A stretch of 64,000 bases of DNA. Origin: an uncultured Gammaproteobacteria bacterium. GTDB lineage: Bacteria > Patescibacteriota > Microgenomatia > Daviesbacterales > UBA10151. The notes beneath the pieces are model-generated. The model had not been told where the DNA came from and did not search any database. It saw only the letters and a list, made by a program, of their open reading frames with translations. Below, piece after piece: positions 6,071 through 27,238 of the stretch (position 1 is the stretch's first letter; every line of letters begins with the position of its first letter). Location of the stretch: positions 61,992 to 125,991 of the forward strand of contig CAZKCV010000001.1 of NCBI GenBank assembly GCA_964551605.1, written 5' to 3'. The position numbers and the translations under genes were made by a program.

Positions 6071-6104
6071 CACCCTAGGGGTGAACATAGGTTGACACCC
6101 CAGG
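6071..6104. repeat. 34-bp CTAG-palindrome dispersed repeat, copy A
   Basis: caccctaggggtgaacataggttgacaccccagg. Copies B (14668-14701) and C (27205-27238) match it at about 90%. It is built from CCCTAGGG and AACCTAGGTT palindromes. Confidence 0.7.
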
Positions 6105-6214
6105 AAAGAATCTGTCCACCCTTACATACACCCTTGGGTGCGGGTTAATTCTGGTTCAAGAATAAACTCATAGTAGTTGCAATAACACATTGCCTGTGAT
6201 AAACTTGGCAACTT

Positions 6215-6595
6215 ATGCATGAATTAGTTGATAAAGCTCTCTATTGGACTGGATTTAGAGGCAAAGAATATGCAATTCGTACCCAACAAATAGGCAACGA
6301 GCAACAAGGCAACTCAATTTCTTTTTCAGTCTACGATGGTAAAAGGTTTAAAGAAACAATAGGACCATTCTCGGCCTTTAATATGGTATCAAGGATTGAC
6401 AGAAAAAGAATCATAGGAAGATTGGAGTGGACCAGCGGGATAAGCAGCGCACTAGGAGGCTCTGCTTTGGTAATCAGCAGTGGACAATTATTACCTGGTC
6501 TAGGTTTTGTTGTATTAGGGATTTTACTTACAAAAGACGGTAAGGAAAGAAGGGATCTCGCATCATCGATCATCAATAACTTCACTAGAAAATAG
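6215..6595 (+). CDS. hypothetical protein
   Basis: ORF only; hydrophobic C-terminal segment. No recognisable motif. Confidence 0.3.
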   Translation: MHELVDKALYWTGFRGKEYAIRTQQIGNEQQGNSISFSVYDGKRFKETIGPFSAFNMVSRIDRKRIIGRLEWTSGISSALGGSALVISSGQLLPGLGFVVLGILLTKDGKERRDLASSIINNFTRK

Positions 6596-6600
6596 CTCTT

Positions 6601-9165
6601 TTACAATTTCTGTAAAAAGTCAGCAATTTTCTTTCCGTCTCTTTTTAACCATTCGGCATTGGAATAAATCTGTTCCAGGGCTTGAGCGATAGTTCTTTTG
6701 GCTTCCGGAACCGGGTTTTTCTTTACAAAGCCTTCAATATCTTTGGCATCCTCTTTTTTGGTAAACTGCCCGGCTGGACCAAATACTTTAGTAAAATAAT
6801 GTCCTCCGGCATACCTTTCTTTAAGTAATCTCCAGTTCTTTTTTACAAATTCCCAAGCTAAATATCGCCCGACAGGATTGCTCCAAACAGCAGCGATGAT
6901 TTGCAAACTATTTTGGAATCTGACATGCTTGGAAATGGAAAAATCCAGGGTTTTAGAAAGTAACTGTTTACTATTAAACTTACCTAATGCCCTTCCAATT
7001 CTATCTTTTTCCTGTTGATTATCTTTCTCTTTATACATCTTCATTAAAGTCTCAAATTCTGCTTTGCTGCCATTTTCAGCCACTAAATTGTAAACTACAG
7101 CCTTTAGATCAGGGTCAATTTTCTTACCGAATAAACTTTGGGCGGTTTTTATAGTTTCCTGATCTCCGAATCCTCCCAGCATATTCAAGACCATGCCCCG
7201 AAGCAAGGAATCAGTATGTTTCTCGCCTTTTCTAGTTTTCCAGCCCAGCTTTCCGGCTATACCTTTATAAATACTTATGCCATATTTTTTGAAATCTTTG
7301 TAAAAAGACTTTTGTGCCAACAAAGAATCAAGTTGTAACAACTTTCCTGTCAACTCAGCCCAAACCGTGTAATCTTCTTCATCCCTATAACTTTTAGCCA
7401 GCTCCAAAGACAAAGTAGTCGGGCTTTGGCCTGATTCTGCCAAAGAAAAAGAGTCCCTGATAAGGCCTAATCTGTCCGGTGCCGGGAGTTTATTTTTCTT
7501 AACAGCCTGTTCCAGGTTTTTAAGATAGGAATGAGGATAATCAATTCTGACCATGGATACTTCTCCCATGTTAAGTTTTTCTCCTTTGTCAGGGATACTC
7601 ATTTGTTTTTTCTCCATCAGAAACTGTTCGCTACCTATTCTTAGAGGTATATTCCAAATAGTGTTATCTTTCGTTTCTTTTTTAGAAATTGGACTGGAGA
7701 AAAATCTGGATTGAATTAATTCCAGCTTCCCCCTTTCCCCTTTATGCTTTACCCTTATCAACGGATGTCCCGGCTTTGAAGTCCAGTTTTTCATTACTTT
7801 AGTAACCGGCTTACCGCTTTTTTCCTCCAGCGCTTTCCATAAATCTTCTGTTCTGGTATTGGAATAAGCATGTCTTTTCAGATAATGCTGCAGGCCTTTT
7901 TGGAAATCCTTATCCCCTAAATATTGCCAAAGCATCCGCAGCACCGAGGCCCCTTTGGCATAAGAAACACTGTCAAAGATTTCGGAAATTTCCGCCGGGT
8001 GGCCAACTTCCACTTCAATCGGGTGGGTATTTTTTAGAGCATCAAGAGAAAGAGCCTCGGCCAGCTCAGTTCCCACAAACTGAGTCCAAATATCCCATTC
8101 CGGAAAAATATTATTGATAGCCAAATACTCTATAAAACAAGCAAAACCTTCATTCAGCCAAAGGTGAGTCCACCACTCCATGGTAACTAAATTGCCAAAC
8201 CACTGGTGGGCCAGCTCATGGGCAATTACCAATGCCACCCGTTGCTTGTTTTCTGTAGATGAGACTTCTTCATGAACCAAAAGAGCTGACTCCCGGTAAG
8301 TCACTGCTCCCCAGTTTTCCATAGCCCCGGCTGCAAAATCAGGAATAGCAATCATATCTAAAACAGGTAATGGGTAAGGGGTACCAAAATAATTGTCATA
8401 AAAATCTAAACATTTGCCGGCCACCTCCAGGGCAAACCTGGCCTGCTCTTTTTTGCCGGGAGAAGTAAAAACCCTGACTAAAACCCCATTCTTGGTTTTG
8501 CCTTCAATATATTCAAAATCCCCTACAATAAAGGCTAAAAGATAGGTAGACATCTTGGGAGTAGGAACAAATTCCACTATTTTGTAACCGGATTCATGCT
8601 CGGAAATATTAGACGGCACCGTGTTTGAAATAGCTGCCATCCCGGCCGGAACCATCAAAGTCACATCAAAGATGGCTTTTTGGGCCGGTTCATCAAAAGA
8701 AGGAAATGCCCTCCTCGCATCAGTTGACTCAAACTGGGTAGTTGCCAGATGCTTTGATACTCCACTCACTTCATAGCGGGAACGGTAAAAACCCCGCATC
8801 TTATCATTCAAAATTCCCTGAAAGGTAAGTTTTAACTGTCCCTTGCCTTTTTGAATGTTTTTAGGAAAGCTAAAGGTGGCAGTTTCTGCCTTTTTGTCGT
8901 AGCTGATCTTCCCAGCCCAAATTTCTTTGTTTTTATGAACAAACTCAGCACTTTCTATTTCCAGCTCCACAGCATGAAGCGTGATTTGTTTGGAGGGTTT
9001 GTCTAAAGATAAAAAAATTGTCTCTTCTCCGGTAAAAGTAAACTCATTCAAATCCGGCTTGAGCATGATCTTGTAACGCTCCGGCTTAACATGAACCGGC
9101 AGTCTAATACTAATTTTATTTTTCATAATTTGTAACTTATATCTGAATCTCCATCGCTTGTCCAT
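6601..9165 (-). CDS. pepN: aminopeptidase N (M1 family)
   Basis: GAMEN motif (AAGAMENWGAV) and HEXXH-18-E zinc site (HELAHQWFGNLVTMEWWTHLWLNEGFA). An ATG at 9126 is an alternative start. Confidence 0.9.
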   Translation of the reverse strand: MDKRWRFRYKLQIMKNKISIRLPVHVKPERYKIMLKPDLNEFTFTGEETIFLSLDKPSKQITLHAVELEIESAEFVHKNKEIWAGKISYDKKAETATFSFPKNIQKGKGQLKLTFQGILNDKMRGFYRSRYEVSGVSKHLATTQFESTDARRAFPSFDEPAQKAIFDVTLMVPAGMAAISNTVPSNISEHESGYKIVEFVPTPKMSTYLLAFIVGDFEYIEGKTKNGVLVRVFTSPGKKEQARFALEVAGKCLDFYDNYFGTPYPLPVLDMIAIPDFAAGAMENWGAVTYRESALLVHEEVSSTENKQRVALVIAHELAHQWFGNLVTMEWWTHLWLNEGFACFIEYLAINNIFPEWDIWTQFVGTELAEALSLDALKNTHPIEVEVGHPAEISEIFDSVSYAKGASVLRMLWQYLGDKDFQKGLQHYLKRHAYSNTRTEDLWKALEEKSGKPVTKVMKNWTSKPGHPLIRVKHKGERGKLELIQSRFFSSPISKKETKDNTIWNIPLRIGSEQFLMEKKQMSIPDKGEKLNMGEVSMVRIDYPHSYLKNLEQAVKKNKLPAPDRLGLIRDSFSLAESGQSPTTLSLELAKSYRDEEDYTVWAELTGKLLQLDSLLAQKSFYKDFKKYGISIYKGIAGKLGWKTRKGEKHTDSLLRGMVLNMLGGFGDQETIKTAQSLFGKKIDPDLKAVVYNLVAENGSKAEFETLMKMYKEKDNQQEKDRIGRALGKFNSKQLLSKTLDFSISKHVRFQNSLQIIAAVWSNPVGRYLAWEFVKKNWRLLKERYAGGHYFTKVFGPAGQFTKKEDAKDIEGFVKKNPVPEAKRTIAQALEQIYSNAEWLKRDGKKIADFLQKL

Positions 9166-9188
9166 AGTCCACTCTGTAATCCCTCATT

Positions 9189-9217
9189 CATTTGTACCAC
9201 GGTCGGAGGACATTTGT
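9189..9217. promoter_or_regulatory. direct-repeat copy 1 (operator-like) between the PaaX-like gene and the pepN start
   Basis: catttgtaccacggtcggaggacatttgt. A near-identical copy at 9721-9749 sits 8 nt upstream of the PaaX-like start codon. Confidence 0.5.
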
Positions 9218-9218
9218 T

Positions 9219-9713
9219 TCAACCTCTAACATTATCGGATTCAATAACCATCACCCAGTCCTCTATCCCGACTTGCTTAATAAAATCTCTTAGTAATCTC
9301 GTGCAATTGATTTTTGAAGCCCAGATGCTTTGCTGCCACTGTTTAAAGCCTAACTGTTTAAGTTTAAACCTCAAAAGATCTCTAGCTTGTCTTCTCTTCT
9401 CTGGAATATCCCACACCACCAACCTCCATTTCCCATCCCATTTTTCATCTCCACTTCTCATTTTGGCCCACAATGCTCTATCTTTACCTGAATCTGTTAA
9501 TCGCAAAAATAACTCTTCATCGCTGACAAATTCAACAAAACCCTTTTCTCTTAAGCGTTTAACCACTTGAGAAAGAACTGACTTTTTAACAGGTCTTTCC
9601 AATAAAGGATTGTAAATAAAATCTTCAAATACTACATATCCATCGATTGATTTCTCTAAAGCTAGCAGAACTAAATCCGTCAAAAACTTACGCTTGCTGG
9701 GAGGCCTTGGCAT
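9219..9713 (-). CDS. PaaX-like transcriptional regulator (short form: wHTH + PaaX middle-domain motif)
   Basis: WDGKWRLVVWDIPEKRRQARDLLRFKLKQLGFKQWQQSIWAS resembles the PaaX WDGKW...PE...R segment. A paralogue lies at 51999-52499. Confidence 0.6.
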   Translation of the reverse strand: MPRPPSKRKFLTDLVLLALEKSIDGYVVFEDFIYNPLLERPVKKSVLSQVVKRLREKGFVEFVSDEELFLRLTDSGKDRALWAKMRSGDEKWDGKWRLVVWDIPEKRRQARDLLRFKLKQLGFKQWQQSIWASKINCTRLLRDFIKQVGIEDWVMVIESDNVRG

Positions 9714-9720
9714 CTTATCA

Positions 9721-9749
9721 CAAATGTACCACGGTCGGAGGATATTTGT
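9721..9749. promoter_or_regulatory. direct-repeat copy 2 (operator-like) immediately upstream of the PaaX-like start
   Basis: caaatgtaccacggtcggaggatatttgt matches 9189-9217 at about 27 of 29 positions. Confidence 0.5.
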
Positions 9750-9795
9750 ACAGAAACCAATTACTTGTACAATTCTTTCTTCGCCAACTTTAAAT

Positions 9796-9804
9796 TGGTA
9801 TAAT
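9796..9804 (+). promoter_or_regulatory. extended -10 promoter (TGgTATAAT) for tRNA-Leu
   Basis: tggtataat lies 18 nt upstream of the tRNA 5' end. No good -35 element. Confidence 0.55.
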
Positions 9805-9821
9805 ACCCCAAGTACTTAAAA

Positions 9822-9905
9822 GCCGGGGTGGCGGAATGGCAGACGCGAAGGTCTCAAAAACCTTTGGTCCTAAAGATCATGAGGGTTCGACTCCCTCCCC
9901 CGGCA
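9822..9905 (+). tRNA. tRNA-Leu(CAA), class II with long variable arm
   Basis: Acceptor GCCGGGG/CCCCGGC. Anticodon stem AAGGT/ACCTT with loop CTCAAAA (anticodon CAA). Long variable arm. T-arm GAGGG-TTCGACT-CCCTC. Discriminator A. No encoded CCA. Confidence 0.85.
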
Positions 9906-9907
9906 CA

Positions 9908-11266
9908 CTATGCAGCTGCAGCCAATTCTTTAGATTCTTCCTTAGGTTTACCCCTGGTTTTTTCCATACCATAGAATTTAGTCCTATCAGCCCTGAAAAC
10001 CAGGTTTATCTCCCCTGTTGGACCATTTCTGTGTTTTTGAATATCTAATATCACCTGTTCCGGGTGCTCCGGATCTTCCCGCCAGATAAACATCACTACA
10101 TCAGCATCCTGTTCAATTGCTCCCGACTCCCGAAGGTCGGCCAGCTGCGGCTTTTTTATCCCTCTTTGCTCTACTGCCCGGGATAGTTGTGAAATGGCCA
10201 GGACCGGAATTTTTAACTCCCTGGCCAAATTTTTTAAATTCTGGGAGATTTCCGAAACCTCCTGAACCCTGTTATCCAAGTTTCTCCCTTTTATAAGCTG
10301 CAGATAATCTACAATTAAGAATTTCAAACCATGTTCAATTTGTAACCTTCTGGCCTTTGTCCTCATCTCGGAAATGGTAATCCCCGGGGTATCATCTATA
10401 AAAATGGGGGCCTCTGCCAGCTCTCCCATGGCCAGGGACAGCTTATCAAAATCCTTTTCATCAAGCCTCCCGGTTTTTAACTTCCAGGCATCTATGTCAG
10501 CCTGCCCCACCAATAACCTGTCTACCAGTTCTTCCTGGCTCATTTCCAGAGAAAAAATCCCCACCGGCAGTCCGGCAGTAACCGCTACATATTGGGCAAT
10601 ATTTAATGCCATGGAAGTTTTACCCTGGCCGGGGCGGGAAGCCAGGATTATCAAATTGGAATTCTGCATGCCGGCTAATTTATTATCCAAATCCCTAAAA
10701 CCTGTCGGTACACCGCGCAATTTTCCGGAAGATTTTTGTAACTCATCCAGCCTGTCGAAGGATTCAGTCAAGGCATCTTTAATCGGCAAAAAATCCCGGC
10801 TGACATGTTCCTGTGAGATAGAAAAGATACCTGCTTCAGCAGATTCCAGCAGTTCTTCAACGGATTCTCCTTCATCATACGCCCGTTGTATCAAAGCAGT
10901 GGCCTGGGCAATTAAACTCCTCCTGACGGCATGGTCTTTAACAATCCTGGCATAATGTTCAATATGGGCCGAGGTAGGAACAATATTAATTAAGGAGGTT
11001 AAATATGCGGACCCGCCGACTTTGTCATAAACGCTTTTTCTCTTAAGCTCTTCTGTTACGGTAACCAAATCTATCGGTTCCCGCCTTTCAAACAAGCTCT
11101 GAATGGCTTCATAAATAAAACCATGCTGTTCTGAGCGGTAAAAGTAAGTCGGGTGCAGTATTTCCGAAATCCGGACTATTGCATCTTTGTCAATCAGAAG
11201 CGCCCCCAAAAGGGATTGCTCAGCATCAATGTTTTGTGGAGGAAGTTTTGTTATTGGCTGCGCCAT
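9908..11266 (-). CDS. dnaB: replicative DNA helicase DnaB
   Basis: Walker A in LIILASRPGQGKTSMALNIAQ. DnaB N-terminal domain present. 452 aa with no intein. Convergent with the tRNA-Leu gene, 2-bp gap. Confidence 0.9.
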   Translation of the reverse strand: MAQPITKLPPQNIDAEQSLLGALLIDKDAIVRISEILHPTYFYRSEQHGFIYEAIQSLFERREPIDLVTVTEELKRKSVYDKVGGSAYLTSLINIVPTSAHIEHYARIVKDHAVRRSLIAQATALIQRAYDEGESVEELLESAEAGIFSISQEHVSRDFLPIKDALTESFDRLDELQKSSGKLRGVPTGFRDLDNKLAGMQNSNLIILASRPGQGKTSMALNIAQYVAVTAGLPVGIFSLEMSQEELVDRLLVGQADIDAWKLKTGRLDEKDFDKLSLAMGELAEAPIFIDDTPGITISEMRTKARRLQIEHGLKFLIVDYLQLIKGRNLDNRVQEVSEISQNLKNLARELKIPVLAISQLSRAVEQRGIKKPQLADLRESGAIEQDADVVMFIWREDPEHPEQVILDIQKHRNGPTGEINLVFRADRTKFYGMEKTRGKPKEESKELAAAA

Positions 11267-11385
11267 AATTCGGTTATCGGTTTTCTGTTTTCAGTTTTCG
11301 GATGAAAGTTGGCCGGTTTTCAGTTAACCGGTTAACAGACAACTGAAAAACCTGAATCTGATAACCGACAACTGAGAACTGATAA
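11267..11385. repeat. complex nested palindromes upstream of dnaB
   Basis: GGTTTTCAGTT-AACCGGTTAAC-AGACAACTGAAAAACC inverted repeat. ATCGGTTATCGGTT is paired with GATAACCGACAAC. gttttcag occurs three times. Confidence 0.55.
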
Positions 11386-12042
11386 CTAACTCTTCCCTAA
11401 CACCACCACCTGTGGCTCTTCCGGCAGCTTCTCTTTTGTAATCGATAACTTCGGGACCGGAACCACCCCTTCAGCTCCCATCTCTTTTAAGAAATTCTCC
11501 ACCCCTTCCAGATCAAATTTTAATCCGTCTATTTTATAGTGCATGGGGATGATAATTTTCGGTTCCAGCTGGGCGACAATTTCCGAGGCCACTTTGGCAT
11601 CAATGGTATAAACCGAGCCCACCGGAATTAAAAGAATATCTGTCTGGCCGATCTGGGCCACCTGTTCTTCTGTTAATTTTGTCTGTCCTAAATCTCCTAA
11701 ATGCACAATGTCTAATCCGTCAAAAAGTATATGAAAAATAGTATTGGCTCCGCGCTCGCTTCCCTCTGAATTATCATGGAATGAGTTAATGCCGGTTACT
11801 ACCACTCCGGCTACTTCATACTCCCCGGGCCTTGAAAAAACCATCGGCCGGCTGCCTTGGGCGCTAACAACCGGAGAACTAAAATTATGATCTTCATGCT
11901 CATGGGAAGTCAACACCATATCGGCCTGCAGATCTTTAGGGAGTTTAAGTCCGGTAAATTCCGGGCTGAATGGATCTATAATGACAGCGGCATTTTTACC
12001 CTTTATCTTAAAGCATGCTTGTCCATACCAATAAATATCCAT
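11386..12042 (-). CDS. MBL-fold metal-dependent hydrolase (UPF0173-like)
   Basis: N-terminal MDIYWYGQACFKIKGK and HEHEDH metal-binding motif. Start moved to the internal ATG at 12042. Confidence 0.8.
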   Translation of the reverse strand: MDIYWYGQACFKIKGKNAAVIIDPFSPEFTGLKLPKDLQADMVLTSHEHEDHNFSSPVVSAQGSRPMVFSRPGEYEVAGVVVTGINSFHDNSEGSERGANTIFHILFDGLDIVHLGDLGQTKLTEEQVAQIGQTDILLIPVGSVYTIDAKVASEIVAQLEPKIIIPMHYKIDGLKFDLEGVENFLKEMGAEGVVPVPKLSITKEKLPEEPQVVVLGKS

Positions 12043-12093
12043 CGCGAAAGATATTAGCAAAAACTTCAAATCCAAACAACCCCTCAAATCAAT

Positions 12094-14023: not shown

Positions 14024-14109
14024 AAGTAGATATATACCATAAACAAAAATTCTGAAAAAGTCCAGCATTTTAGTTTGCAAATAGAAGGTCCTGAGACTAA
14101 AATTCCTAT

Positions 14110-14637
14110 ATGAGTGATAGAGATGTAGCTAATTCTCCAAATGCCGGCGTAATCAATATGGCAAATACGAACTCTCGTACCCGGGCCAGGTCATTTAACA
14201 TCAGGAAAGTGCCTACCCATAATTATGCTCAATATGTCCGAACCGTAAAAGCCTATGCCCTGGCCGGCATGACTTTTGAAGATATTGCCAATGCCGGAGA
14301 TTTTCTGGAAGATGAAGTGGAAAGATTAGAAATTGATGCTCCGCTTCAACAGGACTGGAAAAATATGGCCGGAGAAGTAGCAGAAGATGAAAGCAAGATA
14401 TTAGCCTGGCAAGCCAGGGGGGAAACAGTTTCCATTACTGACCAACTATCTTCTCCGGCCGGCAATACAGGTAAAGAAGTTATGATAATCTCCAAAGACC
14501 TGGTCACTGTTGAACAAAATACAGAACAAACTATAGAGGTTATAGAAGGAATAAAAGTGTCGCTGGAGGTGGATTCACAGTTAGAAAATAATCCCTACCT
14601 TCAATCAATTGTGGGAGATCTCAAAAAAGCAGCTTAA
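14110..14637 (+). CDS. hypothetical acidic protein
   Basis: ORF only. No recognisable motif. Confidence 0.35.
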   Translation: MSDRDVANSPNAGVINMANTNSRTRARSFNIRKVPTHNYAQYVRTVKAYALAGMTFEDIANAGDFLEDEVERLEIDAPLQQDWKNMAGEVAEDESKILAWQARGETVSITDQLSSPAGNTGKEVMIISKDLVTVEQNTEQTIEVIEGIKVSLEVDSQLENNPYLQSIVGDLKKAA

Positions 14638-14667
14638 TTATGTTGGACATGCCTTGGACACCCAGGA

Positions 14668-14701
14668 CACCCTAGGGGTGGGTGTAGGTTGCCACCCCAG
14701 G
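14668..14701. repeat. 34-bp CTAG-palindrome dispersed repeat, copy B
   Basis: caccctaggggtgggtgtaggttgccaccccagg, with a partial extra ggacacccagg immediately upstream. Confidence 0.7.
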
Positions 14702-14724
14702 TAATTTATTAACCGATAGTAAAT

Positions 14725-14752
14725 TTGACAACAGAAATTTTTGTGGTATACT
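14725..14752 (+). promoter_or_regulatory. sigma-70-type promoter TTGACA-16-TGgTATACT driving the leader RNA
   Basis: ttgaca at 14725-14730. Extended -10 tggtatact at 14744-14752. Confidence 0.6.
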
Positions 14753-14758
14753 GTATTT

Positions 14759-14940
14759 ACAACTTAATAACCAAAGACGTTTGTACCGAAGTCACGACTC
14801 GGGAGTCGAGAGCCAAATACTCTACGGAAGTTTAACCGTTAAATGAAACAGACGATGTTGGAAAACCAAAGTCGCCACTAAGAGTCATGAACCGTAATGG
14901 TTCGTGGAAACAGGATGGGACCGCGGGAGGTCCTTTTTTT
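14759..14940 (+). ncRNA. candidate T-box riboswitch leader (tRNA-His type) ending in an intrinsic terminator
   Basis: GGATGGGACCGCGG at 14913-14926 matches the T-box core GGGTGGNACCGCGG at 12 of 14. The variable N is G, complementary to discriminator C73 of tRNA-His. The motif overlaps the 5' arm of the terminator hairpin. hisS lies downstream. Confidence 0.4.
14917..14940 (+). terminator. intrinsic terminator (GGGACC-gcgggag-GGTCC + T7)
   Basis: A 5-6 bp GC stem followed by a run of 7 T. Confidence 0.55.
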
Positions 14941-15090
14941 GAGCTCATGAGTATGAGCGCAGTCGAATACCTTCCGTTCCTTGTTCACTATTTGTCATCC
15001 CGGACTTGATCACACGTGTCAAGAGCCAACGGGATCCATACAGATAATGGGCAAAGAACGGGAGGTTTTTTTGTGGTTAGAAAGGAAGAT

Positions 15091-15756
15091 ATGAAATTAA
15101 ATAAATATTTAATAGCAGATGGTAATTCTACCCTTCTAGTTAAGAGTTATAAGTCTTGTGAGAAAGAAACAATCATTAGAAAATACCTGGGAGAGGTTGA
15201 ACAAATAGGATTTATTTCCTATCCAAGGGGAATCCCCAAACTTTTGATGATGGGGAACGAATTAAGTATTAATGCAACTCTTGCTCTGGCTGCAATGCTA
15301 TCCAATAAATCCGGAAGACTACTATCAAGTGGTTATAAAGGATTTGTACAATATGAGAACCAGAAACAATACACGAAAATACGACTAAGCATTGCATACG
15401 AAAAATTCGACAATACCGCGCTCTTAAATGGCATTGGATATGTATTTCTAAAGAGAAATAAACAAATAAACAAAAATTATTTATCCGGCTTATGTTCCAA
15501 ATATAATCTTCCTGCTTTTGGGGCAATTTTCTATAAGAAAAATCGACTAATTCCCTATGTGTATGTCAAACAAACAAATTCCTTATTTAAAGAAACTGCT
15601 TGTGGTTCAGCTAGCATTGTCCTAAACATCTTGACTGGAAAAAAATTTATCACTCAACCAACTGGAGAAATCATTACTGTAGAAAAAAACGGAAATGATT
15701 TTACAATTTCAGCAGAAATAACCAAAAAAATAACGGGAGGTTTTTTAAAACTATGA
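15091..15756 (+). CDS. DapF/PhzF-fold protein (diaminopimelate-epimerase-like) lacking the first catalytic Cys
   Basis: YLIADGNSTLLVK resembles the DapF GNDFVVV start. ELSINATLALAAML occupies the EMCGNGxRCxA site but with Ser in place of Cys. KETACGSASIV matches the second-Cys block GETLACGTGA. SD aaaggaag precedes the ATG at 15091. Confidence 0.4.
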   Translation: MKLNKYLIADGNSTLLVKSYKSCEKETIIRKYLGEVEQIGFISYPRGIPKLLMMGNELSINATLALAAMLSNKSGRLLSSGYKGFVQYENQKQYTKIRLSIAYEKFDNTALLNGIGYVFLKRNKQINKNYLSGLCSKYNLPAFGAIFYKKNRLIPYVYVKQTNSLFKETACGSASIVLNILTGKKFITQPTGEIITVEKNGNDFTISAEITKKITGGFLKL

Positions 15757-16124
15757 CAGAAAGACAGTTTGATATTGCAAAAGTAAATTTCGAATCATTC
15801 AGAAACCTGACTGAAGATATCGTCACAGCCATTATCTTTGATGATGACACCAAAGAGCATTTAATGGTGGGATTTATGAATAGAACAGCTTTAGAAATGA
15901 CTTTGGAACGGAGAAAAGTTGTATTCTACTCGCGTAGTCGCAAAGCATTATGGTTCAAAGGTGATACTTCTGGGAACCGATTCTTATTAAGAAGAATTGT
16001 ACCAGATTGTGACGGGGATGCTTTAGATATATACGTAGAACCATTAGGCCCAGCCTGTCATACAGGTATGAGAACATGCTTTATTGAACCACCTTCTATT
16101 GAAGAAGGTAAAGAAAGGATATAA
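15753..16124 (+). CDS. hisI: phosphoribosyl-AMP cyclohydrolase (HisI, PRA-CH domain only)
   Basis: LMVGFMNRTALEMTLERRKVVFYSRSRKALWFKGDTSGN, DCDGDALD and GPACHTG..TCF align closely with E. coli HisI. ATGA overlap with the upstream gene. SD gggagg. Confidence 0.85.
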   Translation: MTERQFDIAKVNFESFRNLTEDIVTAIIFDDDTKEHLMVGFMNRTALEMTLERRKVVFYSRSRKALWFKGDTSGNRFLLRRIVPDCDGDALDIYVEPLGPACHTGMRTCFIEPPSIEEGKERI

Positions 16125-16131: not shown

Positions 16132-17376
16132 ATGATTAAAGCACAAACATTAAAAGGATTTCGGGATTTTTTACCGGGTGAAGCCCGCAAGCGTCAGTAT
16201 GTCATAAATAAGTTAAAAGGAGTTTTTGAGTCCTTTGGGTTTGAACCTCTGGAAACTCCGGCTCTGGAATATGAAGAAGTGCTTCTCGGAAAATACGGAG
16301 AAGAAGGCGATAAACTAATGTACCGTTTTACAGATAACGGTGGTCGTAAAGTGGCTTTAAGATACGACCAAACTGTACCTTTAGCCAGAGTGGCAGCCCA
16401 GTATCAAAACGAGTTGCCAATGCCTTTTAAAAGATATCAAATCCAGCCTGTCTGGAGGGCTGAGAATACCCAAAAAGGCCGATTTAGGGAATTTTTGCAG
16501 TGTGATATTGATACAGTTGGCACCACTTCTCCCCTTGCAGATGCAGAAATAATTGCTGCTGCCGCAAAATCTCTACAGGAATTGGGATTTAAGAATTTTA
16601 AGATTATTATTAATGACCGTAATATCTTTGCTCTTCTTTTAAAACGTAAGGCTTTCAGTGAAAAGTCCTTACAAATTATCATAAAAACCATGGATAAATT
16701 GAAAAAGATTGGCCGGGAAGCGGTTTTAGATGAAATGATTGAGAAAGGCATCCCTTCTGAGCAGGCCACTTATGCTATCCAAACTATTGAACAAATGCAG
16801 CCGACTGATAATTTACGGCAGATTTTTGATTTACTGGTAAACCTGGGTGTTGATAAATCCAGATTCGAATTTTCCCCCACTTTAGCCAGAGGCCTGGACT
16901 ATTACACCGGCATGATTTTTGAACTGGAAGTTGAAGGTTATACAGCCGGTTCAGTAGCAGGTGGCGGGAGATTTGATAATCTGATTGGTTTATTTACCGG
17001 CAAGAGTCTTCCGGCAGTAGGTGTAGCTTTTGGATTTGATCGCTTAATCGAGGCCATGGACCAACTTAATCTGTTCCCAAATGATTTAGCCACATCCAAG
17101 GTTCTAATAACGATATTTTCTTCTGAGTTAGAAGAAAAATCTATAGAAATTAGTTCTCGCTTGCGCTCGAACAATATAAACTCTGAACTCTGGCTGGATC
17201 CGGAAACTAAACTGGAAAAACAATTAAAATATGCCGACCAAAAAGGCATCCCTTATGTAATTATCATTGGCCCGGAGGAGGCTGAAGCAAACAAAGTAAC
17301 ATTAAAAAATCTGGAAAGCCAAACCCAGGATAAACTGATTACACTTGACGAAGCTATCCGAAAACTGACATCATAA
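16132..17376 (+). CDS. hisS: histidine--tRNA ligase
   Basis: Class II aaRS motifs in FRDFLPGEARKRQYVINKL, RYDQTVPLARV and GGGRFDNLIG. C-terminal anticodon-binding domain present. Confidence 0.9.
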   Translation: MIKAQTLKGFRDFLPGEARKRQYVINKLKGVFESFGFEPLETPALEYEEVLLGKYGEEGDKLMYRFTDNGGRKVALRYDQTVPLARVAAQYQNELPMPFKRYQIQPVWRAENTQKGRFREFLQCDIDTVGTTSPLADAEIIAAAAKSLQELGFKNFKIIINDRNIFALLLKRKAFSEKSLQIIIKTMDKLKKIGREAVLDEMIEKGIPSEQATYAIQTIEQMQPTDNLRQIFDLLVNLGVDKSRFEFSPTLARGLDYYTGMIFELEVEGYTAGSVAGGGRFDNLIGLFTGKSLPAVGVAFGFDRLIEAMDQLNLFPNDLATSKVLITIFSSELEEKSIEISSRLRSNNINSELWLDPETKLEKQLKYADQKGIPYVIIIGPEEAEANKVTLKNLESQTQDKLITLDEAIRKLTS

Positions 17377-18319: not shown

Positions 18320-18402
18320 GCCTTGCGATAGTTCCACCACCTTCGGTGGTGTAATAACTATCTAAAGGCCCACAGAGTCTAGGTATTTTAAGCCTAGACT
18401 CT
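18304..18402. repeat. cluster of three perfect stem-loops after the transporter gene
   Basis: ggctcacagggtgtgagcc; ccaccaccttcggtggtg; agagtctagg-tattttaag-cctagactct (10-bp stem with CTAG cores). No trailing U-run. Confidence 0.5.
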
Positions 18403-18771: not shown

Positions 18772-18882
18772 ATACCTCCCACTGTCATTCCAGACTTGAT
18801 CTGGAATCTATATAGATTCCTGCTTTCGCAGGAATGACAAGGTATAATAATCCTAAGAGCGATTAGCTCGCAAGATTTTCTT

Positions 18883-19818
18883 ATGAATCAAGATTACCTA
18901 AAAGAACAAATTGATCAGATAAACAGACGCATCCAGGACATCAAGTCTTTGCTGGAAGATCCGGAAATGGCTGAACTGGCAGCAGAGGAAATTACCGAGC
19001 TGGAAAGACAAAAAGAGGAATTGCAGTCATCAGTCGTCAGTCATCAGTCGTCAGATGATTCAAACAGTCTGACAGCTGACAGCGAAGCGATACTGAAATC
19101 TGACAGCTGTATATTAGAAATCCGCTCAGCAGCCGGCGGAGATGAAGCCGGGCTTTTTGCCGGAGATTTGCTGCGGATGTATACCAAGTTTGCTCTAAAT
19201 AAAAAGTGGAAGATTGAGGAACTGGACAGATCAGAGGGAAAATTAGGGCAAATTAAGGAAATTGTACTCAAAATAGTCGGAAAAGGCTGTTTTGACTTAT
19301 TAAAATATGAATCCGGTGTACACCGGGTACAAAGGGTACCCACCACTGAATCTTCCGGCCGGATTCACACTTCAACTTCCACCGTAGCAGTACTCCCCCA
19401 TGTCACGGAAGCACAGGTTGCTATTAATCCGGGAGATATAGAATTTGAGGCTTTCAGAAGCGGAGGCGCAGGAGGACAAAATGTTAATAAAGTCTCCACA
19501 GCCGTCAGACTAAAACACATCCCCACAGGAATCACAGTCACTGCCCAAACCGAGCGTTCACAGTTACAAAACAGGGGAAATGCCCTTTCGCTCCTTAGAG
19601 CCAAGCTCTGGGAAATGGAGCAGCAAAAAACTGTCGGAGATATTGAAACACAAAGATCTACTCAAGTGGGAACCGGTGAAAGATCGGAAAAAATCAGGAC
19701 ATATAATTTTCCCCAAAACCGGGTGACTGACCACCGGATCAACAAATCCTGGCATAATTTAGACAGGATCTTAGAAGGAGACCTGGATGATATCATCCAA
19801 ACCCTCTCAGTACATTAA
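18883..19818 (+). CDS. prfA: peptide chain release factor 1
   Basis: GGQ motif ([18 protein letters not shown]). Codon-recognition tripeptide region [17 protein letters not shown] is PxT-type. Contains the 7-bp tandem (cagtcrt)x4 at 19024-19054. Confidence 0.85.
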
Positions 19819-20500
19819 GGGCTGGGTAGAATTTTACAAGTTAAAGTTTAAAGTTACCCCTGATGTTTTAATCCCCCGCCCGGAAACAGAATTATTAGTA
19901 GATGAGGTTTTACGGTACTGTAACCTGTACCCTGAAACCTGTAACCTGATTCTGGACCTTGGTACCGGCTCCGGAAATATTGCCATTTCCATTGCCAAAA
20001 ACTTACGTTTACACCCTTGGGGTGTAAACGTAACAATTGTTGCTACCGATATTTCCCAAAAAGCCCTTAAAGTAGCCAAACAAAATGCGAAGGTGTATGG
20101 AGTCTCCGACCGGATTATCTTTCTCCAGTCTGATCTGCTTAATTATTCAAAAAGTCGACGATCGTCAGATTTTTGTCAACTTGTTCCTGATATTATTGTT
20201 ACGAATCTGCCTTATATCCCGTCCGCCCGGATTCCCTACCTGGACTCTTCAGTCAAGGATTTTGAACCGCATGTCGCGTTGGATGGTGGTGAAAACGGCT
20301 TTAAGCTTTATAGAAAGCTTTTTCAACAGCTTAAATATAGGAACTGGACACCCAAATTACTCATTGGCGAAATCGACTACACTCATGGGGAACTGGCAGC
20401 AAATGAGGCACAAAAGTATTTTCCTGAAGCCTTAATTGAAGTTAAAAAAGACCTGGCTCACTTACAAAGGATCTTAACAATCGAGCATTTCACTGATTAG
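19787..20500 (+). CDS. prmC: release-factor glutamine N5-methyltransferase PrmC/HemK (short N-terminus)
   Basis: NPPY-type motif [12 protein letters not shown]-binding [12 protein letters not shown]. Overlaps the prfA 3' end by 32 bp. Confidence 0.75.
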
Positions 20501-21614: not shown

Positions 21615-21616
21615 TA

Positions 21617-22861: not shown

Positions 22862-22872
22862 AAATACAAACT

Positions 22873-23997
22873 CTACCCTATTACCTCAAGATTCGCAACT
22901 GGTACCTGCAGTTTTCGCCTCTTGGTTTCCACTGTGGCCAGGGAAATTCGCAGTCCGGAAGGCAAAAGGGTCGGCGACTGGTCAATGGCAACAAGTTTCC
23001 CCTGCTCTCCGGGATAAGAATTGCCAATAATCCTAACCTTTAAGCCAATCCTTAATTCCGTTTTATCCGCAGGCAGAGATTCTTCTGAATTGGATAATTT
23101 AGTCCCCTTTACTTTTTCCAAGCTGGAAGAATAGGGTGAAGGAAGGCTGATCATACCCTTATTCCCGTCAATGAAAACAAATTTCCCCTCATATTCGGAT
23201 AAAACTTCAAATATATCCTCACCCAAAGGGATTGAACCAAATCCTTCGCAAACCACCACTGAAATACCGATGTCGTTATCTAATTTTTTGGGAAACATTA
23301 AGTGGCCGCCTGCCATTGACCGGTAATCTTTTGCCTCTATGCCTCCGGTAATAATGCCGCTAACCCCGTTGGAGATAGCGGCAGCAATAGTCTCCTTAAA
23401 AAATAAACTGCCGCCCACCAGTATATAGCCGTCATAATCTTTTTGTACCTCACTTTTAGCAATCAAATTATCCTGCTTGCTTAAGATATGCAGGGTACCG
23501 TCGCGGAAGTGTCCGGACCCGAACATGCCATATATGCGGCTGACCAGGGTCTTAATCTTTACCTGCCCTTTTTCTTTATCCACCTCTTCCACTAAGCCGT
23601 GGACGCCGGCCGGCAGTTTTGATTTTTTCGGCAGAAAAGCAATCCGGACTTCGCCGGTTTCCTGATTAAAAAAGTCCAACACTCCGTCAGTAGGAGAGGT
23701 AATTACCTTTTTACCAAACAGCCAATCCTTTTTATAGGCCAACAGTTCGCCCTTAAATATCCTTTTGTTTAATTTACCAACCAGGTATTTTTCCACCTGA
23801 TGCGGCGTGACTGCCAATAAGTGAGCCAAATTGATGATCCGAAACCCGGAAGAAATACTGGCTTCACCAATAATTTCATCAGGTGAAACCTGTTGCCCCT
23901 CCTTAACAAAGAGCACGCCTTTTCCTTTTAATACCCTGGTAACTAAAGTGACCGCGTCTTTCTCCACCCTTTTCCTGAGACTAACCAAATTATTCAC
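22873..23997 (-). CDS. hypothetical protein (barrel-sandwich-hybrid-like N-region, KOW/SH3-like C-terminus)
   Basis: VKEGQQVSPDEIIGE lipoyl/hybrid-like motif; LKVRIIGNSYPGEQGKLVAI KOW-like. No family call possible. 11-bp gap to ctp. Confidence 0.35.
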   Translation of the reverse strand: MNNLVSLRKRVEKDAVTLVTRVLKGKGVLFVKEGQQVSPDEIIGEASISSGFRIINLAHLLAVTPHQVEKYLVGKLNKRIFKGELLAYKKDWLFGKKVITSPTDGVLDFFNQETGEVRIAFLPKKSKLPAGVHGLVEEVDKEKGQVKIKTLVSRIYGMFGSGHFRDGTLHILSKQDNLIAKSEVQKDYDGYILVGGSLFFKETIAAAISNGVSGIITGGIEAKDYRSMAGGHLMFPKKLDNDIGISVVVCEGFGSIPLGEDIFEVLSEYEGKFVFIDGNKGMISLPSPYSSSLEKVKGTKLSNSEESLPADKTELRIGLKVRIIGNSYPGEQGKLVAIDQSPTLLPSGLRISLATVETKRRKLQVPVANLEVIG

Positions 23998-24659
23998 AAA
24001 GACCTCCCGTCAATGATCAGGCCCAGTTTTCCGCCGTATACTTCAACCGCACTTTCTTGTTTGCCCAAAAACTTGCCGTTTCGCAAAGAATATTCTATCT
24101 CACACCGCTCTTTCGGACAGCGGATTACCCGGAAACTACCCTGTTTAACCTCGTATTTTTCACTCTTAAACTTTAGCCTGATCTTACCGCTGCTGTCTTC
24201 AAACTGCGGCAGTAAAACAGAGCCGACTATTTCATCAACATCATTGGTTAGCACAATTGTCCAGACATCCTCAAAAAAATCCTGCCTGGCCCGGCCCAAC
24301 AGCAAGCCGTCAATAAAGCTCAGGGTCAAACTTTCCAAATCAGGCACAAATTCCAAAAATCGCTTCGGTATTAAGATTTTCCGCAGGGTGATGTTTAAGA
24401 AAGGGTTGCTACCAAGCAAAGTATTGTTGTTCTTGCCTGTATCTTCTGGCCCGTTAAGTTTAAGAGCCTCACGGAGTATAGCCAGGTCAATCTGCATATC
24501 ATATTCTGTAAGAGGCAAGGCAGCCGGGTATAAGATTTTATTTGCCAAATAATTTTCCAACCTGTTGGCAGCCGGGATTGGCTTAAGCCAGAGGGCTATA
24601 GCTTCAGGGGAGATTTGATCTAAATTATCAAAGCTGTCAAAAAGTCCGGCAGTGGGCAT
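23994..24659 (-). CDS. hypothetical protein
   Basis: ORF with 4-bp overlap (ATGA) to the downstream gene. No motif recognised. Confidence 0.35.
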   Translation of the reverse strand: MPTAGLFDSFDNLDQISPEAIALWLKPIPAANRLENYLANKILYPAALPLTEYDMQIDLAILREALKLNGPEDTGKNNNTLLGSNPFLNITLRKILIPKRFLEFVPDLESLTLSFIDGLLLGRARQDFFEDVWTIVLTNDVDEIVGSVLLPQFEDSSGKIRLKFKSEKYEVKQGSFRVIRCPKERCEIEYSLRNGKFLGKQESAVEVYGGKLGLIIDGRSL

Positions 24660-24662
24660 GAA

Positions 24663-24717
24663 TCTAGTGTACCACTAGATAGTTATGAGTTGGTAGTTAT
24701 TAGTTCGTAGTAATTTC
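24663..24717. repeat. perfect CTAG hairpin (tctagtg-tac-cactaga) plus AGTTNNT heptad array directly upstream of the 24659 start
   Basis: agttatg agttggt agttatt agttcgt agtaatt at 24681-24717. Confidence 0.6.
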
Positions 24718-24718
24718 T

Positions 24719-25048
24719 CTACAACTTAGGAACAAAGGGAAGCAGGGCTAAATGACGGGCGTATTTTATGTTCCTGGCCACTGCCCGCTGGTGTTTGCTG
24801 CAGAGACTGCTCTTGGCGCGGGCCACGATCTTAACCCGGTCTGTAGTGAAACGGCGAAGAACCGCCATATCAGTATAGGAAGGCTCTGTTTTACCTTTGC
24901 AAAATAAACAAACCCTTTTTGTTCTGCCTGTATCCTTAGAGTCTGTTTCCTCAACTTCTGATACTTTTGATACCTCTTCTTCCTTTGATACTTTTTCCTT
25001 CACAGCAATCTTGGATATAACTTTTCTGGTAATTTTCTTTTCTGCCAT
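24719..25048 (-). CDS. rpsR: 30S ribosomal protein S18 (N-terminally extended)
   Basis: RVCLFCKGKTEPSYTDMAVLRRFTTDRVKIVARAKSSLCSKHQRAVARNIKYARHLALLPF. Confidence 0.85.
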   Translation of the reverse strand: MAEKKITRKVISKIAVKEKVSKEEEVSKVSEVEETDSKDTGRTKRVCLFCKGKTEPSYTDMAVLRRFTTDRVKIVARAKSSLCSKHQRAVARNIKYARHLALLPFVPKL

Positions 25049-25072
25049 TGGGGAATTATATATTAAATCTTA

Positions 25073-25564
25073 CTAGAATGGAAGATCGTCTTCTACTTCT
25101 TCTTTAGGGGCTGTTTTTTCTTTCTTTTCTTTCTCCGGCTCTTCCTCTACTGCTGAAACATCTTCTTTTGGCTCATCTTTTTTAACCGGCTCTACATCCA
25201 AATCACCAGGAGCCGCATAATCACTATTTCCCTTCGGAGTAAGCAAAATCATGTCTTCTATGACTATTTCCGTTACCTGCCTGGTCTGGCCATCCTGTCC
25301 TTCCCAGGACCTGGTCTGCAATCTTCCGGATACAAAAACGCGGTTTCCTTTTTTAAGAAGTTGGTTACAAAGTTCAGCCAGTTTATTCCAGGCCACTAAA
25401 CGGTGAAAATCTGCTTCTTCTTTTCTCTCGCCCTCTGTGACGTAAGTCCGGTTGGTAGCCATGCCAAAAGTACAAACAGCAGCGCCATTAGGGGTATATC
25501 GAAGTTCTGGGTCCCGGGTCAGATTACCTATTAGTTCAACTCTATTCCAAGATCTCGATGCCAT
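25073..25564 (-). CDS. ssb: single-stranded DNA-binding protein
   Basis: OB-fold N-domain RVELIGNLTRDPELRYTPNGAAVCTFGMATNRTY. Acidic C-terminal tail ending DDLPF. Confidence 0.9.
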   Translation of the reverse strand: MASRSWNRVELIGNLTRDPELRYTPNGAAVCTFGMATNRTYVTEGERKEEADFHRLVAWNKLAELCNQLLKKGNRVFVSGRLQTRSWEGQDGQTRQVTEIVIEDMILLTPKGNSDYAAPGDLDVEPVKKDEPKEDVSAVEEEPEKEKKEKTAPKEEVEDDLPF

Positions 25565-25570
25565 TTTTGT

Positions 25571-25598
25571 TTAGAAATTAGAAATTAAAAATTAAAAA
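25571..25598. repeat. 7-bp tandem array (ttagaaa)2(ttaaaaa)2 in the ssb-rpsF spacer
   Basis: The same array type is found at 56010-56037. Confidence 0.6.
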
Positions 25599-25604
25599 TT
25601 TCCG

Positions 25605-25886
25605 TTATCTTCTGATTAAGAGATAACGGAGAATATCTTCTTCTACTTTCAAAGTTTTGTCAAGGCCTTTTACATCCTTAGGGTCAGCGGAAATTTCAAT
25701 ATGGGCATAGTAGCCGGAAGTGTTCCTTTTGATGGTATAAGCTAAAGAACGGACCCCCCAAAGGTCTTCTTTCACAATCTTCCCTTCACTGCCGACTATT
25801 TTCTTGGTCATAGAATCAAGAAGAGTTTTCCTTTCTTTCTCTTCCAGCTCTGGTTTTAAGACTAAAGTTAAATAATATGAATTCAT
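25605..25886 (-). CDS. rpsF: 30S ribosomal protein S6
   Basis: MNSYYLTLVLKPELEEKERKTLLDSMTKKIVGSEGKIVKEDLWGVRSLAY. Start moved to the internal ATG at 25886. Confidence 0.8.
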   Translation of the reverse strand: MNSYYLTLVLKPELEEKERKTLLDSMTKKIVGSEGKIVKEDLWGVRSLAYTIKRNTSGYYAHIEISADPKDVKGLDKTLKVEEDILRYLLIRR

Positions 25887-25953
25887 GCTGGAAGGTATTG
25901 TACTAGGAAGCGGAAGATAATTCAATAGCTTAAGAATGTCAACTCCTGATTAA

Positions 25954-27087
25954 TTACCATCTGCTGCGCTGAGAAGCAAATCTTTCCATAAGGTCACGGT
26001 AATAACGTCGCTCTCCCAGACGTACATATGATGGGTCAAGGTTGGCAATGTTTGCGATTACCCAATCCATCGGATTTATCTTAACTTTCTGCCCACATGC
26101 AGCTTCCTGAGCCTCTCTTGTTCTTACTTTCCAAACTTCCCAAACCTCAGAAGATGGGTAACATTCCCCGACTACCATACTAACTAAATGCCTAAATCCT
26201 GGTATTAATTCTTTCCTTAGAAGAGGAGGATCCTGACCGGGTGGATTGAATTCTTTTGTTCCATACATTCTGTATGGAACAACTATGTCATCCCCGTTGC
26301 GTGAAAAAAACCAGGAAAACTCTTTTTTGGGTTCACTCAAAAAACCATCAGAATCGTAAGTCCGGCCACCCTCCACGTAAACCACCAAATGTCTCCTACC
26401 TTCAGACGTAATTTCTAACACCTTCCTCTTAGACTCTTCCCGCATCTCATTAAATACCTTCTTGATGTGTTCTAATGTTTCTTTTTTCTCTTCATCAAGA
26501 TTGTATTTGTGATCCTTATCTTCCAACAATTCCTCTAAATGATTCATATCGCGAGGGGTAACATTATAGAGCAGGTCTTCTGCGCGCATGTACCTCTCAA
26601 TAGGGGGCCTCCTCAACATATTAACGCCTGCTACCCATACTAATTCATCTTCTATTCCCAAACCTCTTCCGTCTTGCTGCAGAAGATATACTGCTCCTGG
26701 GTGATCAGCATCTGCCAAATGGGCCGGGGTAAACTTTAGTCTTTTATTTCCCTCACGGGCGGTCATTATGGCACTTTGTAAATTACCCAGGCCCTCAATT
26801 CCTCCATCCGACAAAACGTTGCTAATATAAAATCGAAACCACCTCCGTATTTTATCAATATGAGGCTGTTCAACTAAACCATCATCAATCTGCCCGCGCA
26901 TAATGCCGGCCTTAATTTTAAGACTAGCAATGGTTGCTATTGGGTCAACAATCTCATCAGATTCTTTATCTAGCTGTTTGATTGGAACGGCCACATCTCT
27001 TCCAATGAAAGGTATAATTATTCCCTGACCTGCAAGTCTTTCTCCAATCTCTCTAATAGGTGCTAGTGGATCTCTTTCAATTGCCAT
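25954..27087 (-). CDS. conserved-looking hypothetical protein (377 aa)
   Basis: No confident family. A short stretch AVYLLQQDGRGLGIEDEL resembles the GTP cyclohydrolase II YLRQ-EGRGIGL block, but the flanks do not match. Confidence 0.35.
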   Translation of the reverse strand: MAIERDPLAPIREIGERLAGQGIIIPFIGRDVAVPIKQLDKESDEIVDPIATIASLKIKAGIMRGQIDDGLVEQPHIDKIRRWFRFYISNVLSDGGIEGLGNLQSAIMTAREGNKRLKFTPAHLADADHPGAVYLLQQDGRGLGIEDELVWVAGVNMLRRPPIERYMRAEDLLYNVTPRDMNHLEELLEDKDHKYNLDEEKKETLEHIKKVFNEMREESKRKVLEITSEGRRHLVVYVEGGRTYDSDGFLSEPKKEFSWFFSRNGDDIVVPYRMYGTKEFNPPGQDPPLLRKELIPGFRHLVSMVVGECYPSSEVWEVWKVRTREAQEAACGQKVKINPMDWVIANIANLDPSYVRLGERRYYRDLMERFASQRSRW

Positions 27088-27204
27088 ATGTAAAGTATTA
27101 TTCTACTATATACCCATAGTAATATCAACCTAACTGCTCCTTTTTGGGAAATATTTTTTGGGAAATATTATTATACAGCAAATTTCAATACCCTGAAAAC
27201 CCGC

Positions 27205-27238
27205 CACCCTAGGGGTGAACCTAGGTTGCCACCCCAGG
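27205..27238. repeat. 34-bp CTAG-palindrome dispersed repeat, copy C
   Basis: caccctaggggtgaacctaggttgccaccccagg. Preceded by the direct repeat (ttttgggaaatatt)x2 at 27142-27169. Confidence 0.7.

Follow-up and report, generated by a model that had tools for sequence, protein, structure and literature searches.

Classical repetitive extragenic palindromes (REPs) are present in tens to hundreds of copies per genome, and most work on the systems that they form with REP-associated tyrosine transposases (RAYTs) has concerned Proteobacteria in which the repeats are abundant. The features that define a REP/RAYT pair have been set out (PMC3479197; PMC5581495), as has the mechanism of the Escherichia coli enzyme, TnpA-REP (PMC3479197). 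The E. coli REP has a conserved, unpaired GTAG 5' of the foot of its hairpin (PMC3479197). RAYTs are single-copy, vertically inherited and housekeeping-like, and are not insertion sequences (IS; PMC5581495). REPINs, which are inverted REP doublets, are abundant; the 16-mers that flank RAYT genes occur 57-140 times per replicon in Groups 2 and 3, and 12-14 occurrences are found in low-abundance RAYT groups (PMC5581495). Here, we analyzed a 34-nucleotide (nt) motif that recurs in a 64-kb stretch of DNA (the window, within which all positions are numbered) from a genome of Candidatus Daviesbacteria, a member of the Microgenomates in the candidate phyla radiation (CPR). The 34-mer is very probably the REP of this genome, and its partner a RAYT whose gene is bracketed by inverted copies of the motif in related genomes. 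A REP-like structural element was among the readings offered in a preliminary description of the window, and it is the one that the related genomes bear out.

A covariance model (R1, trained on 15 copies) was run on the fetched loci, which are designated by L numbers, and in both L010 and L011 detected an additional copy with slight sequence differences, which places a gene of about 224 amino acids (aa) between two inverted copies. The complete arrangement, REP(+)-gene-REP(-), was found in eight distinct loci (L010/L024, L011, L014/L015, L017, L020, L036/L041, L039, and L042), and three more were partial, with contig ends or one degenerate copy (L016/L019, L026, and L035). On the contigs of three further homologues, 58-75% identical, a REP(+) lies 15-25 nt before the start codon and an inverted REP follows right after the stop codon. 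A Y1 HUH homologue flanked by at least two inverted REPs was found in relatives and not inside the window. Since the motif brackets a RAYT gene in these relatives, the element is identified as a REP and the gene as its RAYT.

The product of the bracketed gene has the catalytic motifs and the predicted fold of a RAYT, as judged by its HUH and tyrosine motifs, two protein family models and a structural match. It matched Pfam PF01797 Y1_Tnp (IS200-like transposase) with 28.5 bits (cutoff 23) and NCBIfam NF047646, "REP-associated tyrosine transposase," with E = 4e-13 and 49.5 bits, a score below the 80-bit equivalog cutoff. A database search recovered 1,704 homologues of about 221-224 aa. When 22 diverse homologues were aligned, MPNHxH (the HUH motif) and SRYIHLNPV (the tyrosine motif) were invariant, with H89, H91, and Y149. 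A single-sequence phmmer search of the PDB with the RAYT gave no match, and a sequence search of the PDB by a profile of the 22 homologues ranked 4ER8, the E. coli TnpA-REP, first with a weak score (E = 0.047). An AlphaFold2 model of the protein (pLDDT 83.5) had the same entry, the REP-bound "REP associated tyrosine transposase," as its best match in a Foldseek search of the PDB (E = 4e-6, TM(target) 0.67). Structures of IS200/IS605 TnpA were the runners-up.

The neighborhood of the RAYT gene recurs between genomes, with a divergently oriented gene for a TPR protein upstream and YebC/TACO1 downstream. The TPR proteins are only 42-80% identical between genomes. The full TPR/RAYT/YebC order was present in L010, L011, L014, L017, and L042, and the TPR neighbor also in L020, L024, L035, L036, L039, and L041. 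A single-copy RAYT passed on vertically, as opposed to an insertion sequence, is expected to keep its locus across diverged genomes in this way, and the synteny suggests that the Daviesbacteria gene is of this kind.

The pairing of a Y1 gene with hairpins also bears on the alternative that REP(+)-Y1 gene-REP(-) is an autonomous, IS200/IS605-type IS, of which the 34-mers would be solo ends or derivatives resembling miniature inverted-repeat transposable elements (MITEs). Pfam and the predicted fold make the protein a Y1 HUH transposase, hairpins lie beside both ends of its gene, the copy number is low, as in many IS families, and one copy (the REP in the prmC-like gene of L004, described below) is a presence/absence difference. 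The left- and right-end hairpins of IS200/IS605 elements, however, lie on the same strand in direct orientation, and an element of this type is present in several copies and is mobile as a whole. The hairpins that flank the Daviesbacteria gene are inverted, the gene sits at one conserved TPR-YebC locus in genomes whose proteins have diverged to 42-80% identity, RAYT protein P0001 (JACOXH01) was recorded on one contig, and the top structural and NCBIfam matches are RAYTs, not IS TnpA. An autonomous IS is therefore an improbable explanation of the arrangement.

The 34-mer folds as one imperfect hairpin, CCT(A)GGGGTG / CACCCCAGG, with a 9-bp stem, one bulged A and a 12-nt loop, and an unpaired CAC precedes the stem on the 5' side. 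A short, imperfect stem-loop palindrome of about 20-40 nt with a mismatch or bulge is typical of a REP, and the element, at 34 nt with its bulged A, is such a palindrome. The hairpin was the predicted minimum-energy DNA fold for all three + strands of the window copies (z = -2.8 for copy A). The element had earlier been presented as two perfect, CTAG-centered palindromes; the first, CCCTAGGG, is present in all three copies, but the second, AACCTAGGTT, is perfect only in copy C, with the imperfect AACATAGGTT and GGTGTAGGTT at this position in copies A and B, respectively. A single imperfect hairpin is the better description.

Paralogues of the RAYT have hairpins of their own. The L001 paralogue (44% identical) is flanked by inverted hairpins of the form CACCCTCCAGGTG-N11-CACCT, and the L037 paralogue (37% identical) by inverted hairpins of the form CACCTCCGAGGTG-N12-CACCTAGGG. 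When these are aligned with the hairpins of the main family, two base pairs in the long stem show compensatory change (G-C to A-T and T-A to C-G), as does a single pair in the short 5' palindrome. In the alignment across the variant families, 92% of cells were paired and compensatory change occurred at two stem pairs. The variant hairpins support the hairpin structure and the co-evolution of protein and repeat, without amounting to proof; the independent events are few.

The loop positions were left unspecified in every search. Among 42 distinct aligned copies, position 22 was invariably T, positions T18, A19, and T23 were near-invariant, and the 3' flank had the consensus A(T/A)TTT. The RAYT-flanking REPs of L010, L011, L014, L017, L036, L039, and L042 differ systematically from each other by side. 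The loop of the 5' copy is usually ...TATATTGA. The inverted 3' copy usually has a ...TAGGTT(T/G) loop and, in many cases, CACACCAGG, so that its stem contains a mismatch. The TAGGTTG loop, which is the 3' type, is carried by each of copies A, B and C in the window.

Three copies of the motif at about 90% identity had been reported in the window, and these were recovered in full. The pattern CACCCTAGGGGTG-N12-CACCCCAGG had exactly three matches, beginning at 6071, 14668, and 27205, all on the + strand, with pairwise identities of 85-94%. No match occurred in 100 dinucleotide-preserving shuffles of the window and none is expected by chance. The formula given earlier, 13 + N8 + 17, does not total 34; the layout is 13 bases (CACCCTAGGGGTG), 12 variable or semi-conserved bases and nine bases (CACCCCAGG), with positions 1-13 and 26-34 conserved. 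Copy A (6071-6104, +; CACCCTAGGGGTGAACATAGGTTGACACCCCAGG) reads CACCCTAGGGGTG-AACATAGGTTGA-CACCCCAGG and scored 59.1 bits with the covariance model; its stem is formed by 6074-6083 and 6096-6104 (+), with the bulged A at 6077 and the loop at 6084-6095. Copy B (14668-14701, +; CACCCTAGGGGTGGGTGTAGGTTGCCACCCCAGG) reads CACCCTAGGGGTG-GGTGTAGGTTGC-CACCCCAGG and scored 58.3 bits, and copy C (27205-27238, +; CACCCTAGGGGTGAACCTAGGTTGCCACCCCAGG) reads CACCCTAGGGGTG-AACCTAGGTTGC-CACCCCAGG and scored 65.0 bits. The copies are dispersed singletons at successive spacings of 8.6 and 12.5 kb (a density of three per 64 kb), and all lie between open reading frames (ORFs) when ORFs of at least 80 aa are considered.

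Over the whole window, the copies scored 58-65 bits with the covariance model and the best non-copy 11.3 bits. The model detected no inverted partner within hundreds of bases of any window copy, and the REPIN doublet arrangement was accordingly not found there. Degenerate partial copies had been noted beside copies A and B. The strings exist (CACCCTTGGGTG at 6129-6140 and CACCCAGGA at 14659-14667) but are not copies by the covariance model. The former, an uncertain short palindrome without assigned strand, lies 24 nt downstream of copy A and resembles the 5' arm (CACCC-TAG-GGGTG). It could be a decayed inverted partner, that is, a REPIN remnant, or a chance occurrence; it falls below the detection level of the model, and its membership in the family has no statistical support. 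Two further hairpins (18375-18402 and 24663-24679) share CTAG with the 34-mer, as had been stated, but nothing else, and are unrelated to it. Depletion of CTAG, proposed as a check, was evident in the window (observed/expected 0.39).

In scans of public genomes and metagenomes, the motif was almost confined to Candidatus Daviesbacteria. A scan of one genome per species with the exact pattern CACCCTAGGGGTG-N12-CACCCC gave 13 loci, with one to four exact matches per genome. Seven of the 13 are titled Candidatus Daviesbacteria, and six come from two metagenome-assembled genomes (MAGs) titled "bacterium" and "Gammaproteobacteria." The 3'-terminal AGG, which was left out of the pattern, was present in every match. 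Several of these loci share a common gene order with the window, at 68-78% nucleotide identity over long gene alignments, which identifies the window as DNA of a related Daviesbacterium. A metagenome scan with a looser pattern added 27 loci. Two metagenome matches, L034 and L038, were treated as chance, having unrelated loops and off-consensus bases at both pattern-free positions. In addition to the copies that flank RAYT genes, relatives have two to three dispersed copies, mainly extragenic. A scan of a viral contig collection gave no matches, and a phage attachment site was rejected on this ground.

Some of the taxonomic labels attached to these sequences are probably wrong. The CAZDEH01 MAG (L008, L010, and L012), titled "uncultured Gammaproteobacteria," carries the same REP, and its contig L010 has the TPR/RAYT/YebC arrangement of the Daviesbacteria loci. 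The RAYT homologue P0108 is titled "Armatimonadetes."

Copies inside coding sequences were found in relatives. In L004, a full REP (1282-1315, -) lies in frame and in sense inside a prmC-like methyltransferase ORF (1147-1887) and encodes STLGVTLGWHPR. The orthologue in the window (19787-20500) is without a REP, with a net difference of +12 nt, and this is the clearest presence/absence difference of the family. A REP also lies antisense and in frame inside murD (L003 2686-2719, +, within 2352-3698, -; L018 2754-2787), where it encodes TWGGNLQTPLGC and falls in a loop that differs in length from one solved MurD structure to another. The statement that copies are always intergenic thus holds for the window copies but not for the family. 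The prmC-like ORF of the window has, at 20003-20029 (+), a perfect hairpin with a 12-bp stem, ACGTTTACACCC-TTG-GGGTGTAAACGT, which coincides with four extra residues (LHPW) of the window protein relative to L004. The core of this hairpin, CACCCTTGGGGTG, is one base off the REP 5' arm. The hairpin may have been left behind by a separate insertion, or it may be coincidental.

Several observations weigh against the identification of the 34-mer as a REP with a cognate RAYT. No RAYT was found in the 64-kb window by tblastn or profile search (best E = 1.2), so that the link for the window's genome rests on relatives. The copy number of one to four exact matches per species-representative genome is not the high copy number of classical REPs, and on a 594-kb contig the sole exact match returned by the metagenome scan adjoins that contig's RAYT gene. 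Unlike Pseudomonas REPINs, the Daviesbacteria copies are single and sparse, and are closer in this respect to the low-abundance RAYT groups. The intragenic copies in the prmC-like gene and murD of two relatives show that the REP is not strictly extragenic. No degraded copies were detected in the window by the covariance model, which is unusual for a selfish repeat. The unpaired 5' bases of the Daviesbacteria hairpin are CAC, not GTAG, and the invariance of the stem and the 5' CAC was partly imposed by the search patterns used.

The settings of the three window copies differ from each other. Copy A lies in the interval between the genes for EF-P (4953-5603, -) and peptidase M1 (6601-9165, -), upstream of an ORF at 6215-6595 (+). 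L013 has a REP of the same orientation in the orthologous EF-P/peptidase M1 interval, and in L007 a REP abuts the 3' end of the peptidase gene; only the REP and a few adjoining bases align at this site, and the remaining intergenic DNA does not. The cargo beside this conserved REP is variable. Between the REP and the peptidase M1 3' end, L013 has a HicB antitoxin gene (464-808, +), the window has ORF 6215-6595, which is unrelated to HicB and has no Pfam match, and L007 has nothing. Synteny between L007 (2471-8000) and the window (4658-8868 and 28525-30402) breaks at the REP. The order in L007 is peptidase M1 3' end, REP, a homologue of window 28525-30402, and EF-P; in the window the REP-adjacent segment differs, and 28525-30402 lies 22 kb off, beside copy C and ychF. 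REPs may mark rearrangement junctions.

The stop codon of ORF 14110-14637 (+) is 31 nt upstream of copy B, and 23 nt downstream of the copy is a near-consensus promoter that has an extended TG, TTGACA-16-TATACT (14725-14752, +). The preliminary description placed this copy before the strong promoter of a candidate T-box leader. The T-box match (14771-14937) is weak, at 17.9 bits (gathering score 93; E = 0.075). The match takes in AAACAGGAUGGGACCGCG, which resembles a T-box sequence, and the terminator GGGACC..GGUCCUUUUUUU. Downstream of the candidate leader region (14725-14940, +) are hisI (PRA-CH, 15753-16124) and hisS (histidyl-tRNA synthetase, 16132-17376), a context that fits a divergent His T-box. 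An identical copy B is present at the orthologous site in L009 (Daviesbacteria JACPDA01). It lies within a non-coding block of about 245 nt (window 14625-14870; L009 about 1215-970, -) that is about 99% identical between the two, against about 77% for adjacent coding sequence. The block runs from the end of ORF 14110-14637 through REP B and the promoter into the leader, of which it covers the initial 110 nt or so, and its identity may reflect either extreme constraint or recent exchange. Beyond the block, the window has ORF 15016-15756, without a Pfam match, and hisI, and L009 has only about 92 bp before hisS.

Copy C is flanked on one side by the start of ORF 25954-27087 (-) and on the other by the stop codon of YchF (27297-28418, -), which is 59 nt away; the copy is antisense to YchF. 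A promoter-like TTGACA-17-TAAACT (27250-27278, +) begins 11 nt after the copy. When all copies of the window and its relatives are considered, their position and orientation relative to genes are mixed and include gene 3' ends, intervals between convergent genes and coding sequences.

The promoter-like sites that follow copies B and C by 23 and 11 nt are among the features that would suit an operator, in which three CACC(C) half-sites bound by a sequence-specific regulator mark a small regulon. The three CACCC/GGGTG units have fixed spacing and all three co-vary between families, and orthologous copies are conserved amid diverged flanks. The placement and orientation of the copies are nonetheless too inconsistent for an operator, extending to gene 3' ends, convergent intervals and coding sequences; neighboring gene families vary by locus, the only recurrent neighbor being the Y1 transposase, and no regulator gene is associated with the motif. 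An operator is thus very unlikely. The related proposal of a binding site for an unknown global regulator is not supported, as the partner to which the genomic association points is an HUH/Y1 nuclease-transposase rather than a transcription factor and the positions and orientations of copies are not fixed.

That the copies are intrinsic terminators or mRNA-stabilizing hairpins, alike by descent or convergence and without mobile-element biology, draws on the GC-rich stem, the downstream A(T/A)TTT consensus and the many copies 5-66 nt from a stop codon, yet is hardly credible, given that a simple terminator scan (GC hairpin, loop of at most 8 nt, then a T-run) calls no copy because of the 12-nt loop and short T-run, that most copies abutting a gene 3' end are antisense to the gene and would give a transcript without a U-tract, and that identical stems at unrelated loci and in different species and the pairing with a transposase are left unexplained. 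The suggestion of a small RNA or terminator module as the primary identity is likewise unsupported; the REP matches no Rfam family (at the gathering threshold, the window gave tRNA-Leu only). A secondary role of copies as mRNA 3' hairpins may exist.

Strand bias, a potential sign that single-stranded or lagging-strand DNA is targeted, was assessed for 29 dispersed copies by comparison with local composition. GC skew of the strand carrying CACCCTAGG was negative at 18 and positive at 10, a comparison that is confounded by gene orientation, and the flanking ORFs split 15/14. In the window and the genome collection together (15 copies), GC skew was never above zero, and this did not extend to the metagenome copies.

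With the 34-mer read as a REP, a mechanism can be proposed by homology with TnpA-REP and the IS200/IS605 TnpA proteins. The hairpin with its unpaired 5' CAC would fold on single-stranded DNA, where the RAYT would bind it, including the bulge and the unpaired 5' bases, and would cut and rejoin nearby DNA through a 5'-phosphotyrosine intermediate. The RAYT may occasionally have copied REPs to new sites in trans. The window copies would then be dispersed singletons whose RAYT is encoded elsewhere in the genome. Secondary effects of copies on adjacent genes could include a hairpin at the 3' end of the ORF 14110-14637 mRNA and insulation of the promoter of the hisS leader.

A further reading, which we consider doubtful, is that the REP/RAYT pair of these very small CPR genomes is domesticated and maintained by the host, with individual hairpins kept by selection rather than as a selfish repeat. 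It is prompted by three observations: the 22 bases of the stem and 5' arm are all intact in orthologous copies of species whose flanking genes are only 70-77% identical and whose surrounding intergenic DNA is unalignable, no decayed copies were detected, and two essential genes (prmC-like and murD) accommodate a copy in frame. Ongoing homogenization mediated by the RAYT, or ascertainment by exact-pattern searching, are alternative explanations of intact stems and the lack of decay. If the pair is domesticated, the RAYT would be a site-specific nuclease/ligase of single-stranded DNA that acts at a handful of fixed chromosomal hairpins, with possible roles in the processing of replication forks or recombination intermediates or in marking rearrangement junctions such as that of L007.

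The base composition of the window has other features. CpG is under-represented (observed/expected 0.70), yet a quarter of the CpGs (464 of 1,843) lie within CCGG. Other CpG palindromes are rare (CGCG, 33; ACGT, 40; GCGC, 57; and TCGA, 68). The share of CpGs within CCGG is weaker in the related loci, at 8-19%.

Full-text literature searches found no description of a RAYT, a REPIN or a REP/RAYT system in CPR/Patescibacteria. The pair is a known kind of bacterial repeat system that is apparently new, and not yet described, in this group of tiny genomes. The Daviesbacteria family represents a minimal version, in which a lone RAYT keeps its locus and the hairpins are few and barely vary; some of them occupy orthologous sites in different species and some lie in frame in essential genes. 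It is an amenable system in which to ask whether host benefit maintains RAYTs and REPs or whether they are merely slow parasites, and it is relevant to the persistence of repeats in genomes that are nearly devoid of intergenic space. In annotation, the REP identity accounts for three puzzling, conserved 34-mers and cautions against taking them for operators or small RNAs.

Among known systems, the subterminal hairpins of IS608 and ISDra2 (IS200/IS605) resemble the Daviesbacteria element in being imperfect, single-stranded DNA hairpins of Y1 HUH transposases, which were the next-best structural matches. The Daviesbacteria hairpins differ in that the flanking pair is inverted and the gene between them is syntenic across species. 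Another counterpart is the E. coli REP/BIME (bacterial interspersed mosaic element) and TnpA-REP system (PMC3479197). Both have an imperfect palindrome of about 30-35 nt whose stem contains an extrahelical or mismatched base, copies that are dispersed and mostly intergenic, and a cognate HUH/Y1 gene flanked by REPs, and the predicted RAYT fold, with its HUH and tyrosine motifs, best matches PDB 4ER8. Unpaired bases precede the hairpin foot in both, their invariance in the Daviesbacteria element being partly imposed by the search pattern. The Daviesbacteria element departs from the E. coli REP in its 5' bases, CAC(C) rather than GTAG, in an unrelated stem sequence, in a partly conserved loop of 12 nt, and in its few copies per genome, rather than hundreds, which are singletons and not BIME clusters. 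Its RAYT is about 223 aa, compared with 165 aa for TnpA-REP, with 17% identity and a score below the NCBIfam equivalog cutoff. As in the REPIN/RAYT systems of Pseudomonas (Bertels & Rainey; PMC3116915; PMC5581495), the RAYT appears to be single-copy and vertically inherited, at a fixed locus and with its own flanking repeat, and each RAYT paralogue has its own cognate REP variant.

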